Source: Ignavibacteriales bacterium (GTDB lineage: Bacteria > Bacteroidota > Ignavibacteria > Ignavibacteriales > SURF-24). Taken from it: DNA of 64,000 bases. The stretch's first letter is position 1, and each line of letters begins with the position of its first letter. The stretch lies in the NCBI GenBank assembly GCA_036261625.1, contig DATAKL010000044.1:72352-136351 (forward strand), in the 5' to 3' direction. The position numbers and the translations under genes are program-made. Below are positions 25 to 40,300 of this stretch, one piece after another. The notes beneath the pieces are model-generated. The model did no database searches. It had not been told where the DNA came from and was given only the letters and a program-made list of their open reading frames with translations.

Positions 25-108
25 TGCGAGAACGGGGACTCGAACCCCGACACCGGTTAGGTACTAGATCCTAAGTCTAGCGCGTCTACCAAATTCCGCC
101 ATTCTCGC
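25..108 (-). tRNA. tRNA-Leu (anticodon UAG)
   Basis: The reverse complement folds as a class II tRNA. Acceptor stem is GCGAGAA/TTCTCGC. Anticodon stem is CTAGA/TCTAG with loop CT-TAG-GA. It has a long variable arm, T-arm CGGGG-TTCGAGT-CCCCG and discriminator A. No CCA is encoded. Confidence 0.9.
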
Positions 109-7334: not shown

Positions 7335-8096
7335 ATGAGTGAGTACTTTTCAGAAAAGAGAAACTTTAGAAAGTATGCCTTGTTTTCAGGATATGTTCTG
7401 ATTTACATCCTTCTTTTTGAATTTATAATTCCTGCAGGCAGTTTCCTGCCGAAACCGTCCCTGGTCCTGGAGTCTTTTTCATCTTTACAGGTACATTACG
7501 GCTTTCTTGTAAACGCCCTTTATACTGTTTCAGGGATTTACCTTTCCATGGTCCTGGCCTATGGGATTATTTTTCTTCTCAGGGTGCCCCTGCTTGGACT
7601 TCTTTTGAAGAGAAGGGATTTTCTTGACTCACTTGGGCTCTTTAAGTACTTTACAGCCATCTCCTTTATTACTCTTTATGTCTATTGGTTCCCTGTTTCG
7701 AACCTGTCTGAAATCTTATTTACGTTTTTAGTTTGTTTGATCTTTCTTATAAACACAGTTTCGCTTTCGGCAGCGGGTGTAAAACGCTCATACATTGAAC
7801 CCTTCATTGCCCTTAAGGCAGAAGATTCATTCCTGTATGGAAATGTTTACTGGAAAGGTATAAAGCCTGGTTTATTTGCCTCCTTCGAAAGGCTGAACCT
7901 TTATCTCTGGTCAATTGTACTTTTCTTTGAATTTGTAAAAGGCTATATGGGGCTCGGCAACATTTACAGACTTGCACTTTCCTTTAAGGATCTCTCGGCG
8001 CTTTTGGCAGCCTCAGTGCTTGTTGCCGTAATGATTGCGCTTGGTGAACTAATCATTAAGCTCTTAAACAGAAAACTTATAACCTGGGAGAGCTGA
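7335..8096 (+). CDS. Polytopic membrane protein, divergent NitT/TauT-type ABC permease-like
   Basis: About 6 hydrophobic segments. The N-terminal FLPKPSLVLESF pattern and overall layout resemble SsuC/TauC-type permeases. Immediately followed by an ABC ATPase-like gene 2 nt later. Confidence 0.55.
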   Translation: MSEYFSEKRNFRKYALFSGYVLIYILLFEFIIPAGSFLPKPSLVLESFSSLQVHYGFLVNALYTVSGIYLSMVLAYGIIFLLRVPLLGLLLKRRDFLDSLGLFKYFTAISFITLYVYWFPVSNLSEILFTFLVCLIFLINTVSLSAAGVKRSYIEPFIALKAEDSFLYGNVYWKGIKPGLFASFERLNLYLWSIVLFFEFVKGYMGLGNIYRLALSFKDLSALLAASVLVAVMIALGELIIKLLNRKLITWES

Positions 8097-13647: not shown

Positions 13648-13703
13648 TTTAATTGAAAAATTGTTCTTATTTTTATAGTATTATTTTGAACTAACACGAA
13701 AGC

Positions 13704-13791
13704 CGACGTTAGGGGTGTCGCGGGATTATTTTCCGGCGGCTGAGATTATACCCTTAAACCTGATCTGGATAATGCCAGCGTAGGGAAACGA
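13704..13791 (+). promoter_or_regulatory. TPP (THI-box) riboswitch aptamer
   Basis: Near-consensus THI-box: AGGGGTG...GGCTGAGATTATACCCTTAAACCTGATCTGGATAATGCCAGCGTAGGGAAACG. P1 pairing is CGTT/AACG. Confidence 0.92.
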
Positions 13792-13819
13792 CTAAAGATA
13801 TAAGAGTAATTGTTACTTT

Positions 13820-34858: not shown

Positions 34859-35374
34859 TTGAAAAACATTAAAATAATTTTATTTGCCTTTGTACTCTTT
34901 GCTCTTTACGCAACGGGTTATGCCCAGGAAGCCAAAACAGAGAAGGTTGAGAAGAATGCTTCAAACATAGAAAAGTTCGATCCCAAGAGGGATGCGGCAA
35001 AGGACATTGAAAACGCGGTAGTTGAAGCAAAGAAATCCGGGAAGAACATTCTTCTTGACGTAGGAGGCGAGTGGTGCCCCTGGTGCCGTGCCTTAAGCAA
35101 GCTTATGGCGGAGAACAAAGAAATAGCCGATTACATGAAAGCAAACTATGTAGTTGTAAAAGTAAATTTCAGCAAGGAAAACAAGAACGAGGCAGTGCTT
35201 TCAAAATATCCCAAGATCCCCGGATATCCTCATCTCTTTGTCCTCGACAGTGAAGGAAAGCTCCTGCACTCACAGGATACCGGAGTCCTAGAGTCAGGCA
35301 AAGGTCACGATCCGGAAAAGGTATTAAACTTCCTTAAAGAGTGGTCTCCAAAGAACGTAAAGAAAGCAAGCTGA
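34859..35374 (+). CDS. Secreted thioredoxin-fold protein (CPWC active site)
   Basis: Signal peptide. Thioredoxin-like LLDVGGEWCPWCRAL motif followed by YVVVKVNF. TTG start with an AGAGGAG RBS. Confidence 0.75.
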   Translation: MKNIKIILFAFVLFALYATGYAQEAKTEKVEKNASNIEKFDPKRDAAKDIENAVVEAKKSGKNILLDVGGEWCPWCRALSKLMAENKEIADYMKANYVVVKVNFSKENKNEAVLSKYPKIPGYPHLFVLDSEGKLLHSQDTGVLESGKGHDPEKVLNFLKEWSPKNVKKAS

Positions 35375-35396
35375 TAAAAAGACAGAATTGAATTAC

Positions 35397-35425
35397 AAAA
35401 GCCCTTAGCAATAAGGGCTTTTTGT
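35397..35425 (+). terminator. Rho-independent terminator after the thioredoxin-like gene
   Basis: AAAAGCCCTTA-GCAA-TAAGGGCTTTTT hairpin followed by a T-run. Confidence 0.85.
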
Positions 35426-35446
35426 TTATTACGGATGTATTCAAAT

Positions 35447-35531
35447 GCCGCGGTCAGCGGCATGGTATTGATAGCCTGGGGTGACAAATCCGTCTTTGAC
35501 GGATGCAGGAACCCCAGGGATAGGATCCCCC
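35447..35531 (+). repeat. GC-rich structured intergenic repeat, copy 1
   Basis: Small hairpin GCCGC-GGTCA-GCGGC, then ATGGTATTGATAGCC. Outer stem is CCTGGGG...CCCCAGG enclosing TGACAA and the inner hairpin ATCCGTC-TTT-GACGGAT, then GATAGGATCCCCC. Alignable by eye with copy 2. Confidence 0.7.
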
Positions 35532-35826
35532 ACCACACCCCCCGAGCCGCAGCAGCCGCGACATGCTCCGATCCCATGGCGCCCAAATTTTAGTGAATTT
35601 GGTTATGTTTTATGGGGCATGGGGTTTCCCCAATGAATTTCCGCCTATAAAATATGCAGCCGCCTGCGGGACCCCGTGTGTTAAAGATAATTCCGAAAAC
35701 GTTCCTGCTATCAAATATTTTCAAAGAATAGAGAATTATATGTTTGACAATAAATATAATTTTCCCAATTATTACTCTTGCCATTGTTTCCCATGTAGGG
35801 TTTAATTACTAATTAAGGGATATAAA

Positions 35827-36213
35827 ATGCCATTAGATTTGACTTTGTTCATTGTCCTTCTTGGAACGTTTGGACTTTGGATTTTTGGGATTAAGCGAGA
35901 GCTATTTATTAGACCAAAATCTTTTAAGTTAATTCTTATAATAAGCATAGTATTGTTTATTATGGCTTATGTTCTTCCTGTATTTGATGCTTTCAAAAAT
36001 AAACCGGTAAACATTCTTAAGTTGCCTATTTTAGCATTGTTTCTTTATAGAATCTTAAGAGCTTTCTTCAGGAAAATGAATGATCGCGAACCGAAAGACA
36101 CCTTCTGGGTAATGCACACCTGGGAAGGGATCTGGGCAGATACAGTATTTAATATATCATTTTGGCTAATACATGGCATTTTATTTATGCTTTTGCTTGC
36201 GGAGAAAATATAA
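35827..36213 (+). CDS. Hypothetical small membrane protein (about 4 TM)
   Basis: ORF with four hydrophobic segments in a visibly AT-rich stretch. I recognise no family. Confidence 0.5.
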   Translation: MPLDLTLFIVLLGTFGLWIFGIKRELFIRPKSFKLILIISIVLFIMAYVLPVFDAFKNKPVNILKLPILALFLYRILRAFFRKMNDREPKDTFWVMHTWEGIWADTVFNISFWLIHGILFMLLLAEKI

Positions 36214-36263
36214 ATGAAAAATGTTTAAGATATTTCAGAATATCCCTATTGGAGAAAATAGGC

Positions 36264-37007
36264 ATGAGATATGTTCTAATAATATTTTTATTCGTTAACA
36301 CTATAGTTTCAGCAGAAAAAAAGAGCTACGCGTTAACCGATATCAGAAACACAAGGAAATTTACTCTTACCATCGAGGAAGACTTAGTTGATGAGGTAAT
36401 GAAACTAGTTCTTTATGAAAAGAAAAAAGTCATCGATAGCCTTCAGGTCCCATATGTCAAGTACATTACGAATATTACTGAGTCACAGCGAAGTTTTCTG
36501 AAAGTGGAGTTCCGCAGAGGAGGAAGTTCAGGTGTGAAGATGCGTTTTACAAGCATCTTTTGTGCAGCGGATTCAAAGATAGTACCAAGCTTAACTCAAA
36601 TAAGTACTATATATTCTCATATAACAAAGACTTTTATTCCCAAATACGACAGCATTAAAGGTGTTAAATATCACGAGGATTATTCTATATACTATAATCT
36701 TCTGAAATCAGGAAGAGAATACTCAGTAAAGGTAAACGACAGTTACTTTCTCAAATCGATATTTGAATCTGACATTAATGAAAAATGGACAAATCGCCTG
36801 AATCTTAAATTCGACAAAGAACAATTTATATTTTATTCTGAGAAAAGGAAAGTTAAAGGTCATTTTCAGATTTATTATTTAAACGACTCTGAGGAATCCA
36901 AAGAACTCAACGGTGAATTCTGGGCTATTGAGATGAAAAGATTTACTTATCTCTGGATCAACTCAAGATGGTTTTATATTGCTAGAAATAAACTAAATGA
37001 AATATGA
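36264..37007 (+). CDS. Hypothetical secreted protein
   Basis: The internal ATG at 36264 gives a signal-peptide-like N-terminus (MRYVLIIFLFVNTIVSAEKK). K/Y/S-rich, AT-rich codons. I recognise no family. The ORF-track start at 36162 overlaps the previous gene. Confidence 0.5.
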   Translation: MRYVLIIFLFVNTIVSAEKKSYALTDIRNTRKFTLTIEEDLVDEVMKLVLYEKKKVIDSLQVPYVKYITNITESQRSFLKVEFRRGGSSGVKMRFTSIFCAADSKIVPSLTQISTIYSHITKTFIPKYDSIKGVKYHEDYSIYYNLLKSGREYSVKVNDSYFLKSIFESDINEKWTNRLNLKFDKEQFIFYSEKRKVKGHFQIYYLNDSEESKELNGEFWAIEMKRFTYLWINSRWFYIARNKLNEI

Positions 37008-37074
37008 CTAAGTTTCATGCATGAAGTTAATAATGGATGAGTTATTATTCGAGGATTTGTCAGATATTCATTGA

Positions 37075-37159
37075 GTCCGCTCTCACGGACGAAATGTTTG
37101 TAGCCCAGGGTGACAAATCCGCCTTGCGGATGCCGGAACCCCGGGAAAAGAATCCCCCC
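37075..37159 (+). repeat. GC-rich structured intergenic repeat, copy 2
   Basis: Small hairpin GTCCG-CTCTCA-CGGAC, then AAATGTTTGTAGCCCAGGGTGACAA. Inner hairpin ATCCGC-CTT-GCGGAT, then GCCGGAACCCCGGGAAAAGAATCCCCC. Same architecture and orientation as copy 1. Confidence 0.7.
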
Positions 37160-37236
37160 ATACATCAGAGCCCCGCAGGTGGCGGCATAATAAATTAATT
37201 TAATCCAAGTAAGTATTGATTTGTGTAACAGACATA

Positions 37237-37257
37237 AAACCACTGACGTGGTTTTTT
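37237..37257. terminator. Bidirectional hairpin terminator (serves the minus-strand GH13 gene; also part of a truncated repeat copy)
   Basis: AAAACCAC-TGAC-GTGGTTTTTT. The perfect stem is flanked by an A-run and a T-run, so it can terminate in either direction. Confidence 0.6.
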
Positions 37258-37262
37258 AGGGA

Positions 37263-37345
37263 GGGGATTCCATACCCAGGGTTACATCACCCCCTACGGG
37301 GGAGTGTAACCCTGGGCTACAGACATGGAACCACTCCGTGGTTCC
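37263..37345 (-). repeat. GC-rich structured intergenic repeat, copy 3 (inverted orientation)
   Basis: The minus strand reads GGAACCAC-GGA-GTGGTTCC, then ATGTCTGTAGCCCAGGGTTACA. Inner hairpin CTCCCCC-GTA-GGGGGTG, then ATGTAACCCTGGGTATGGAATCCCC. Flanks match copy 2, but the inner hairpin has a different sequence that still pairs. Confidence 0.7.
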
Positions 37346-37370
37346 GGACTATTCTTAAGCCGCCTGAATG

Positions 37371-40300
37371 TTAAACGGTTGCGGCCGTAAGGTTAGCTTT
37401 CAGATTGTTCAGTTTGTATTCTGACATGTCGGAAACCTCTTTCAGGTAACGGTTCATGTAGTAGCTGTCCCTGATATAATTGAAAAGGGCGGTGTTCTTT
37501 TCCGTTATATCCTCCAGGCCGCACAGGTAATTCATAATCCTAAGCGTTAGGCGCCAGTTGCCAAGCTCTTCAAGGTTTTCTTTGCTGTAATACCATTCGC
37601 CTTCATAGTAATTGGCCCCAATAAAGGACTTTACTTCTTCATCACTAAGGAGCTTCTCGATCATCTCTTTTTCTTCTTTTTCAAGCTGACTCTTTACACC
37701 AGTTGTAACATTCGTATCAGCTGCAGCACTGGATTTTACTTTTCCCTTAGCTGTTTTCTTTTCTTCCGTAACAGCGGCTGGCTTTCTTGAAAGCGTGGAC
37801 TTGTTCTTTAGAAGAACCCTTACAAGCTTTATAACCTGATCCACTTCGTAGGCACTTCCTCCCAGGCGGTGCAGCACCTGCTGCAAAGGTTTTGTGAGAT
37901 ATAACTCATCAAAAAGTTCAATCGTGCGCGCACCTGTGTCGTCTTTCTGCCTTAAAATGCCTATGTCCTTAATACTTAACCACAGTGCATAGATGAGCAG
38001 GTTCCTGGGATAGTTGGATTCACGGCTTAAGAGGAAAGACCTTCTGAAGTCGTCTGTAACGGATTCATTTTCTACAACTACTTCGTTATCTGTAAGAAGA
38101 TCGTTAATCGATTTAATTGCATCCAGTCCGTTTGTAAAATTGCTTATCAGAACGGGCATGCTGCCGTCTGCCTGAATATGGTCTTTTACCTGATTGATGA
38201 AATACTCGTAGCGGCTGATTATAGACTTCAGCGTGCTTTCTGTATTCTTAATTTCTTTGTCTTTTACAAAGAGGTCTGTTACCAGTTCAATTGACCTGTT
38301 GTCAAAAAGATTTAAGAGCGCTTCATGCACTGAAGAAAGCCTCTGTTCAACTAAAGCCTGTTCGATGCTTGGAACACCGGAGCCGTTAAGAGATCTCCAG
38401 ATCTCTTCATACTCTCCGTTTACGTCATAGACCTCCCTGAAATCCAGAAATACATGATACTTAAACGGCTTCAGATGAATAAACAAACCCTTTTCACCCA
38501 GCTCACGCCCGAGCCTTATGTATTCCAGGTTATTTACAAGATCGCGGTAGATGTAGAAATATTTGTCCTCTGTCCTTAAACCCAGGGCAGGCACAAGGCT
38601 GGAATAAATTGTTGTCCTTTCCTCACCCACTCCTGTCGGGATTGATTTTCCGGTCGTGCGGTTAATCCAGCCCGTAGTCTCAGCGAATTTATTGTTGTAA
38701 ACTACAATTGCTCTTTCGTCGCCGAATTTATTGGTATATGCAAAGACATTCTGGTTCACATTGCCGTCGTTGGTATAGAAGTCGTAGAACCAGAAGTTAT
38801 CCACCTGACTGAACATGTATCTTTTTTTCATGAGGGGGAATATTTCTCTTCTGTGGCGATCGACGAGATACTCATTTACAAACTCGTTGTAGTATGCTCT
38901 CTTGTATTCCATGCCGTACTTCTCGGAATAGCCTTCAACCTGCCCGTGCGCAAACATCGGGAGTCCGGGCAATGTAACCATTAGAGTAGCAACTCCGAAG
39001 TACTTGTCGTCTGTTCCGAACTGCCTTATTGCAGTCTCCTCGTCGGGATTACTCATGAAGTTGACGTAGCGCTTTAATATCTCGGGGTTAAACTCCAGCG
39101 TGCTGGAGATGACCTTGCGGTACTTCTCGTTTTCCTCCTTCATCATCATGTGCATGAAGGCGCTGTTATAAACCCTGTGCATGCCGAGCGTGCGCACGAA
39201 GTAGCCTTCCATGAGCCAGAAGGCTTCTGCCAGGAGGAGTGTATCCGGCATCTCCTCGTTAATCCTGTCTACAACTTCCCTCCAGAATTCCTTAGGGAAG
39301 AGCTGATCGAATTCTTCTACTCTTAAGCCGTAATCGCTTCTTGAAGGTATGTCGCCACCGGATCCCGGCTGCGGGTACCAAAGGCGGTGGAAGTGACGTT
39401 TGGCCAAAGTCATTGCGGCATCAAAGCGTATAATGGAAGTTTTCCTTGCAACGTGGAATATAGTCTGGATTACGGCCTCGCGCACATAATCCTTTAACAG
39501 GTCCAGCTGAGCCGTATCGTTCCACGGCATGTTGGTGCCGTCGTTGCCGTGATAAATGTAGCGCACCTCACCAGAATTATTGTCTATTCTCTGGAACACA
39601 ACAGCGGCATCGGTTTTTGACCAGTATCCGTCTTCAATCCTTAGCTGAACGCTTGGGTCTTCCGACAAGTCGGGTCCCGTAAATCTGTAGTTAGGGAAGG
39701 GGCTGTATGGGCTCTGTATAAAATAGTCCGGGTGCTCAATTACCCATTTGGAATAGATACCCATATGGTTGGGGACCATATCGCTTGCAAGCCTTATTCC
39801 TCTTTGGCGGCAGCGGTAGTTCAGGTTCTGGAATGCGTGCTCACCCCCTAAGTCGTATGCAATTACGTAGTCGTAGACCGAATAAGCCGAAGGAACGGCC
39901 TCGGGGTTTCCGGTCATCTGTTTAATTCTCTGTGAAGCGCGGCTCCTCTCCCAAAGACCTATAAGCCAGAGCCCTGTAAAGTTAAAGCCAGCAATCATAT
40001 CCAGCTCTTCGTCCGGTATCTGATCCAGGTGGGCTATATGCCTGGAGTATTTTCTTGAAAGCTGGTCGAGCCATACGTAGACGTTTTTAGCCAGCAGGAC
40101 CACCTGGGGCATCCAGTGCACGTCGGGCGTAAATCGTTCGCCTTCAAGAAAGTCCAGGTGAGCGTCGCGTCCGTATCTGTAGCCCGATTTGCCGAGCGTA
40201 AGATAATCCAGATCGCCGGCTCCTGCCTTGTAGCGGGGGACAGCCGTAGGGGCACCGCCTCCCATACCCCAGGCGCCAAGGCGGTAGTCTTCCTTAATCA

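Follow-up and report, generated by a model that had tools for sequence, protein, structure and literature searches.

Structured inverted repeats resembling REP/REPIN elements, associated with Y1 transposases of probable subclass 1.2, at a lineage-specific insertion in an Ignavibacteriales genome

Repetitive extragenic palindromic (REP) sequences and REPINs (REP doublets forming hairpins), together with the REP-associated tyrosine transposases (RAYTs), are the best-known long-lived, vertically inherited mobile elements of bacteria. To our knowledge, almost everything established about them comes from Proteobacteria and from class 2 RAYTs. Here we describe a family of GC-rich, hairpin-forming repeats on a 64,000-nucleotide stretch of an Ignavibacteriales genome (contig DATAKL010000044.1 of assembly GCA_036261625.1, positions 72,352 to 136,351; hereafter the window), where three copies and an AT-rich island with two genes lie between a thioredoxin-like gene and a GH13 gene. 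We consider it highly probable that these repeats represent a non-autonomous DNA element of REP/REPIN-like type, the autonomous-looking version of which consists of a Y1/HUH transposase gene encoding 140-167 aa between two facing arms.

The GTAG-type REPs, the REPINs or bacterial interspersed mosaic elements (BIMEs) and the REPtrons served as reference systems, as presented in Nunvar 2010 (PMC2817692), Bertels & Rainey 2011 (PMC3116915) and Di Nocera 2013 (PMC3733652). Like these, the repeats described here are imperfect palindromes with a conserved (G)TAG at the 5' foot, are intergenic, frequently form inverted doublets and flank a Y1/HUH gene as inward-facing copies and, in genomes other than that of the window, greatly exceed the single gene locus in number. 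Unlike in REPtrons, whose class 2 RAYT carries the signature Y...NP, the partner protein shows Y...Q..HH. Moreover, classical REPs measure 20-40 nt and are mostly species- or genus-specific, whereas the arm of the present element is a composite of ~110 nt that includes a C-rich tail and, in addition, two short hairpins or boxes rich in GC, and the sequence of its foot and internal loop is conserved across phyla. Di Nocera 2013 (PMC3733652) reports GTAG-tagged REPs in the Planctomycetes-Verrucomicrobia-Chlamydiae (PVC) group, among other phyla, as well as TIRtrons, which are Y1 genes with inverted repeats sharing the motif GGGGWSAS. The likeness to TIRtrons and their transposases (TIRYTs) consists in longer inverted repeats flanking Y1 genes, with some moderately abundant families occurring as dimers, and GGGGTGAC, found in many of our cores, conforms to GGGGWSAS, a short match of the motif alone that is possibly coincidence. 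Most published TIRYTs, unlike the proteins described here, were placed in subclass 2.1 (about 238 aa, helix-turn-helix tail, Y...NP; Quentin et al., PMC6006769) and belong to a different protein group.

Closer to the present proteins is TnpAY1 subclass 1.2 (Quentin et al. 2018, PMC6006769; signature in Table 1), with which they share a length of 141-167 aa, the motifs DH[VL]H, WQ and YIxNQEEHH, the C-terminal tail and a low copy number. This subclass was described as low-copy, without IS200-type ends or insertion sequence (IS) properties, as "REP: no", and as occurring mostly in Cyanobacteria and Bacteroidetes. In contrast, structured inverted repeats flank the gene at 45 of the 80 loci that we selected by protein, and the hosts also include Planctomycetota, Acidobacteriota and Ignavibacteria contigs. 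A full-text literature search of incomplete coverage returned no paper on repeats around subclass 1.2 genes.

Each repeat in the window contains a TAGCCYRGGGTKACA box. The 64 kb have exactly three such boxes, at 35472-35486 (+), 37101-37115 (+) and 37305-37319 (-), compared to 0.53 expected by chance. Every box starts a long hairpin with a conserved foot (CCNNGGGT/ACCCNNGG) and an inner stem that is copy-specific yet paired. A short hairpin (H1), different in sequence in each copy, lies 8-10 nt 5' of the box, and a C-rich tail (GRATCCCC...) follows 3' of the core hairpin. The foot tetranucleotide is GTAG in copies 2 and 3 and ATAG in copy 1. Folds of the element strand yielded z-scores of -3.5, -2.2 and -5.1 for the three copies, and in the window a covariance model derived from 59 family members and run with filters off matched these three full copies and no others (53-61 bits, E 1e-13 to 1e-15). 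The initial annotation of this region had reported three full copies and a truncated fourth. All four pieces were found in their places and every hairpin named there pairs, while the supposed fourth copy (37236-37255) is not independent: it represents H3 of copy 3, a second short hairpin that most family members have about 20 nt past the core.

With one genome scanned per species, the search pattern occurred at 87 loci, about 55 of which exhibited the full architecture. They derive from Planctomycetota, Acidobacteriota, Chitinophagales, Opitutales, Parachlamydiaceae and low-GC Ignavibacteria-like contigs (GC 0.43-0.46; window 0.44). From 5' to 3', the shared arm consists of the short, variable, GC-rich H1, a conserved linker of ~8 nt, (G)TAG-CC, a long imperfect palindrome, the C-rich tail and a second short GC-rich box. 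Within the palindrome, the foot and the internal loop (GACA../..GGA) are conserved and the tip is variable. TAG is invariant in all 59 copies used for the model, preceded mostly by G. In the 87-locus set the model produced 116 matches, most of them inverted pairs about 150 nt apart, and the full element of the window-like subfamily measures about 330 bp, with two inverted ~110-nt arms around an oriented AT-rich center. A Fimbriiglobus metagenome-assembled genome (MAG) alone contains 14 repeat loci with about 20 copies. The REP/MITE-like family (MITE standing for miniature inverted-repeat transposable element) that had been proposed from the window is thus borne out by multiple copies in other genomes, usually as inverted doublets, by the (G)TAG foot and by the Y1 HUH transposase gene flanked by the element in many lineages. 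A phage origin is unlikely: 2.9 million viral contigs contained just three matches to the pattern.

The layout of conserved flanks around stems that vary but remain compensated proved real and general in this family. The two foot-stem positions left free by the search pattern pair in 54 of the 59 copies, with all four Watson-Crick pair types present. In an independent set of 54 copies from the protein-selected loci, the foot-stem cells were paired to 100%, two-sided changes occurred in five of eight pairs, and none of 500 shuffles reached the score. Likewise, 197 of 258 copies (shuffles: 12.5) have an H1 hairpin that pairs perfectly over 5 bp or more and stops 5-12 nt short of TAGCC; 96 different stem sequences occur, with loops that are mostly G(G/A/T)A.

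Such compensation had initially been attributed to selection on structure in RNA or single-stranded DNA. Our results indicate a DNA-level element, and stem compensation by itself is no proof of selection on RNA. A structured RNA family, be it a 3'-UTR (untranslated region) stabilizer, a terminator or a small RNA whose folding is under selection, would nevertheless agree with several observations. Each of the three window copies is located directly downstream of a gene whose sense orientation it shares, shuffled sequence gives less stable folds, the internal loop could, judging from its sequence, form tandem G.A pairs, and REPs elsewhere act secondarily on mRNA stability (reviewed in Di Nocera 2013, PMC3733652). 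Rfam 15, however, contained no match to the element, either at the gathering threshold across the whole window or at E up to 10 in 35300-37500, where the only weak matches corresponded to the thioredoxin-gene terminator. Copies of the low-GC subfamily also reside between divergent genes and beside gene 5' ends, and wobble counts favored no strand (four A.C and one U.G in the foot stem of 59 copies). Folds of the whole hairpin were mixed in this regard, as energy favors the TAG strand but far more G.T pairs form on the complement. Inverted doublets, two-sided flanking of a transposase gene at a fixed distance and syntenic presence or absence are properties of mobile DNA. We therefore regard the small-RNA alternative raised by the initial annotation as quite unlikely to be correct; an RNA function is possible as a secondary property and fits poorly as the primary explanation. 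A scan for promoters and terminators, unsuited to Bacteroidota-type promoters, gave counts not above those of shuffles.

The association with Y1 transposases was observed from both directions. In searches that started from the repeat, a 142-aa open reading frame (ORF) at locus L029 was identified as Y1_Tnp (PF01797, E 6.7e-20) and is enclosed by two inward-facing copies. Loci L028, L003, L015, L057 and L075 also have Y1 genes between inward-facing copies, and Y1 homologues between or beside copies were additionally found at L049, L025 and L041. For the reverse test, 80 metagenome loci were selected by Y1 protein similarity alone. An inward-facing match to the model was present at most 300 nt from a gene end in 45 of these loci (31 upstream, 30 downstream, 16 on both sides), and the commonest gap between repeat and Y1 gene was 45-70 nt on either side. 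The gene is far rarer than the repeats; it is missing from all 14 repeat loci of the Fimbriiglobus MAG mentioned above. No tnpB adjoins the Y1 gene at the loci examined, and a tblastn search with the Escherichia coli RAYT (YafM, approximate query sequence) produced no significant match in the window or the loci.

Among Ignavibacteria, the Y1 gene P0130 at locus L176 is flanked by arms that match copy 1 in H1 (ATGCCGCGGACAGCGGCAT), linker, GATAGCC foot, tail and inner box. The sample of origin (SRR24085893) is the one that also provided L091, to which the window is most closely related. P0130 was read on 18 contigs, and since the six places shown share the same neighbors (a heavy-metal ATPase and a 118-aa ORF), it represents, as judged from metagenome contigs, one locus rather than many. 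Two further Y1 proteins, P0128 (HEX2865857.1) and P0133 (HEX2868437.1), are 96% and 59% identical, respectively, to the Y1 fragment of L041. Both are labeled "MAG TPA Ignavibacteriales bacterium", as is the second island protein of the window (HEX2867538.1). Because these accession numbers are so close, all three very probably come from one MAG, namely that of the window. This MAG appears to encode two Y1 proteins of class 1.2 type, with each paralogue possibly dedicated to a repeat subfamily of its own, such as GATAGCC versus TGTAGCC arms.

The Y1 proteins (141-167 aa) exhibit the motifs DH[VL]H, WQ and YIxNQEEHH and a conserved C-terminal tail (...F/YDERYL). These motifs make up the signature given for TnpAY1 subclass 1.2 (Y...Q..HH), to which the proteins probably belong; the tyrosine motif YIxNQEEHH is not the Y...NP of class 2 RAYTs. 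The protein narrowly passes the NCBIfam IS200 model NF033573 (56.7 bits, cutoff 55), and both PGAP and NCBIfam name it an IS200/IS605 family transposase. Its closest solved structures are the TnpA proteins of ISDra2 and IS608, and the E. coli RAYT is absent among its PDB matches.

These names and structural matches would agree with a different view, in which the Y1 gene and its arms form an ordinary autonomous IS200/IS605 element and the window copies are decayed ends or MITEs without any long-term association of the REP/RAYT kind. IS608 and ISDra2 indeed share with the present element a Y1 HUH transposase and DNA hairpins near the element ends that the enzyme recognizes, a recognition predicted here by analogy. 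However, the ends of IS200/IS605 elements are distinct left and right hairpins on one strand, whereas both ends are inverted copies here. Whole IS200/IS605 units are present in multiple copies and often come with tnpB, whereas P0130 occupies one locus, the Y1 gene has no adjoining tnpB and the repeats greatly exceed it in number. The subclass 1.2 motifs, too, point to a group described as low-copy and without IS properties (PMC6006769). On balance, an ordinary IS200/IS605 origin seems unlikely to us.

IS608 and ISDra2 TnpA as well as the E. coli RAYT act on folded hairpins in single-stranded DNA. By analogy to these enzymes, the Y1 protein of the REP/REPIN-like element would recognize the folded hairpin and the TAG foot on single-stranded DNA. 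We infer that it cuts and rejoins at the foot, a catalysis by which arms and doublets would spread through intergenic DNA. If only copies that still fold were recognized, paired stem changes would result, and hairpin-templated repair may contribute to them. Because position and loop are conserved while the stem sequence is free, comparison of the copies suggests that H1 and the inner box serve as a binding site of structural nature and not as a target sequence. A side observation touches on where cutting might occur. In the window (37236-37262, -) and at about 1530-1570 of L018, the linker ATGTYTGT(AG) recurs past the inner hairpin and the similarity then ends. This end directly after GTAG, as if a second unit had been cut, may mark a cleavage or joining point of the element.

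Several points weigh against a REP/REPIN-like element. The window contains three copies in 64 kb, all at one site, which does not in itself establish a high copy number in the genome, and no Y1 gene is present within these 64 kb; that the genome of the window has such a gene is very probable from the proximity of accession numbers. The arms at L176 have a core (CCCCGGGGCGCAGCCCCGCGGGG) that differs from that of the window copies. The Y1 protein fails the NCBIfam RAYT model NF047646 (REP_Tyr_transpos; 18.3 bits, cutoff 80), and, instead of a domesticated RAYT, the unit could be a genuine insertion sequence that has miniature derivatives. Cleavage and transposition by this Y1 subclass are proposed by analogy. 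Even so, with the anatomy, the stem covariation, the doublet organization, the tight two-sided association with Y1 genes and the insertion polymorphism described below, we favor the REP/REPIN-like reading.

Closer examination of the window copies revealed that copies 2 and 3 together make up a complete inverted doublet, with 105 nt separating the arms, in agreement with the inverted arrangement noted initially. Copy 1 is a truncated doublet (35445 to about 35685) that lacks the inverted right arm. Its core is located where the initial annotation had placed it, but its end had been set too early, as homology to full doublets elsewhere (GC-rich box, AT-rich center, second GC-rich box) continues to about 35680-35690. 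On the + strand, copy 1 begins with H1 (35445-35463, ATGCCGC-GGTCA-GCGGCAT), of which L041, L018 and L176 have near-identical versions, followed by the linker GGTATTGA and the invariant TAGCC foot (35464-35476). The core hairpin (35475-35518) comprises P1 (CCTGGGGT/ACCCCAGG), the internal loop GACAA/GCAGGA and P2 (ATCCGTC/GACGGAT). The C-rich tail GATAGGATCCCCCACCACACCCCCC and the inner GC-rich box GAGCCGCAGCAGCCGCGACATG occupy 35519-35565. The AT-rich central region (35566-35651, +) is homologous, in the same orientation, to the doublet centers of L027, L030, L064 and L095. Doublet homology stops at the inner GC-rich box that belongs to the missing right arm (ATATGCAGCCGCCTGCGGGACCCCG...; 35652-35685, +), and the inverted core arm is absent.

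Copy 2 (+) starts with H1 at 37075-37090 (GTCCG-CTCTCA-CGGAC). The linker GAAATGTTTG, TAGCC and the core hairpin, with P1 CCCAGGGT/ACCCCGGG including one A.C mismatch and P2 ATCCGC/GCGGAT, extend over 37091-37145, and the C-rich tail AAAAGAATCCCCCCATACATCA and inner GC-rich box GAGCCCCGCAGGTGGCGGCAT over 37146-37188. A short AT-rich spacer (37189-37235, no strand assigned) separates copy 2 from the inner hairpin H3 of copy 3 (37236-37255, -; AAAACCAC-GTCA-GTGGTTTT), which is followed on the - strand by the linker remnant ATGTCTGT. The tail, core hairpin and linker of copy 3 are located at 37256-37325 (-). Its core is a near-perfect palindrome with 19-bp arms (37275-37316), and its TAGCC occupies positions 37315-37319 as numbered on the + strand. 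H1 of copy 3 (GGAACCAC-GGA-GTGGTTCC) ends the array at 37327-37345 (-). In short-read Logan assemblies of SRR13766244, contigs break inside copy 1 (L001 ends at window position about 35465 and L089 starts at about 35502) and read through copies 2 and 3, which suggests further occurrences of the copy-1 core sequence in that community.

To follow the history of the site, we compared the junction of the thioredoxin-like and GH13 genes in three relatives (L091, L092 and L093), in which GH13 is 89%, 85% and 72% identical and gene order is kept over more than 10 kb. The two genes are convergent and separated by 85, 115 and 47 nt, respectively, as opposed to 1996 nt in the window. The gap in the relatives is filled by one bidirectional terminator hairpin, with no repeats and no island, and the covariance model detected no copy in about 55 kb of their syntenic DNA. 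In the window, homology to the relatives ends near 35396 on the left, and the right half of the ancestral hairpin (AAGCCGCC, 37357-37364, +; GGCGGCTG...CAGCCGCC in the relatives) is retained as the right edge. Since the genes are only 47-115 nt apart in all three relatives and half of the ancestral hairpin survives, the intervening 1.96 kb (about 35397-37355) is a lineage-specific block. It consists of a terminator-like hairpin at the left edge (AAAAGCCCTTAGCAATAAGGGCTTTT and T-run, 35397-35422, +; absent from the junction of the relatives), the copy-1 element, two ORFs and the copy 2/3 doublet. Acquisition of this block as a lineage-specific insertion into the shared terminator of two convergent genes, which the initial annotation had raised as a possibility, is well supported. 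No target-site duplication was obvious at the edges of the 1.96-kb block, and empty sites of single doublets were not searched systematically.

The island within the block (35690-37060, +; GC about 0.30-0.36) is AT-richer than its surroundings, as first noted, with a GC of 0.29-0.36 between copies 1 and 2 compared to 0.41-0.53 in the flanking genes. ORF1 (35827-36213, +; 128 aa) has no close homologue, and no relatives were detected in the fetched loci. ORF2 (36264-37007, +; 247 aa) belongs to an orphan family of six proteins among 5.8 billion, of which all labeled members are from Ignavibacteria and the rest are unlabeled. Apart from a sub-threshold match of ORF1 to DUF4181, Pfam, NCBIfam, PHROGs and PADLOC contained nothing for either protein. 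Family repeats are present at both ends of a 4.3-kb contig that encodes one ORF2 homologue (68% identity), and another (55% identity; L094, 4724-6744) is located beside an rve-family integrase without family repeats nearby. In this other Ignavibacteria MAG, the latter stands at one end of a series of about eight small genes, almost none of which has a Pfam match, and its surroundings have the look of a variable or mobile region.

The outermost arms of the block (copy 1 on the + strand and copy 3 on the - strand) face inward, as they do around Y1 genes, and because of this and of the repeats recurring near an ORF2 homologue, mobilization of the island by the repeats is only suggested. Serial insertion, in whatever order the events would have occurred, accounts for the layout of the block equally well. 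A bolder version, in which the outer arms bound a single mobile unit with orphan cargo in place of the Y1 gene, a Y1 enzyme acting in trans moves such passengers as a "REPIN-borne gene cassette", and class 1.2 Y1 proteins drive a REP family that spans phyla, appears improbable as a whole.

We also weighed whether the island might be an integron-like or other site-specific gene cassette with copies 1 and 2, which are direct repeats, as its recombination sites. Foldable direct repeats do bracket a two-gene AT-rich segment that is missing in relatives, and the ORF2 homologue in L094 adjoins an rve integrase. Inspection of the copies, though, revealed no attC core sites (RYYYAAC/GTTRRRY), a scan limited to the 32-41 kb region around the block found no integrase gene, and no transposase was found in the window. 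In addition, the family of these repeats is tied to Y1 transposases, and L094 has no family repeats. We thus consider a cassette of this kind very improbable.

Some further observations concern individual loci of the repeat family. Tandem amplification of parts of the element was apparent at L026 (Chitinophaga filiformis DSM 527, 7414-7800), where a 21-nt unit (ACGAGGGGTGATAACCCCGGG) occurs several times, at L060 (3975-4010), with AAAGCTGGAACCCCGGG three times in tandem, and at about 4230-4290 of L055, where the tail has a CCCCAAA run of six units. Window-like repeats were present on contigs with a GC of 0.43-0.46 assigned to JBLNAZ01 ("Syntrophomonadaceae MAG164"; L018, L027, L064 and L005) and to JBLMYS01 ("Acidobacteriota MAG223"; L030, L037, L041, L055, L060 and L007). 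The Y1 protein of these contigs is 95-100% identical to one labeled Ignavibacteriales, and their source, project PRJNA951521, also yielded an Ignavibacteriales MAG (L093). The repeat-bearing low-GC contigs may be mis-binned, so the phylum labels of the window-like subfamily are not to be trusted. Elsewhere in the window, a thiamine pyrophosphate (TPP) riboswitch (RF00059) is encoded at 13701-13803 (+; 70.2 bits, gathering score 54.3) and a tRNA gene of 84 nt that has a long variable arm (RF00005, 57.7 bits) at 25-108 (-), near the window edge.

For annotators, the block at 35.4-37.4 kb of the window is flagged as recently acquired DNA, and the repeat family explains GC-rich intergenic hairpins that break assemblies in these genomes. 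The relevance of the family lies mainly in research on REPIN-RAYT systems and single-strand transposases, since the logic of REPs is found here in partnership with a different Y1 lineage, class 1.2, which the main published survey lists without repeats. If this reading is true, subclass 1.2 would gain a function and directly testable DNA substrates, and the REP lifestyle would either have arisen more than once within the Y1 transposases or predate class 2.

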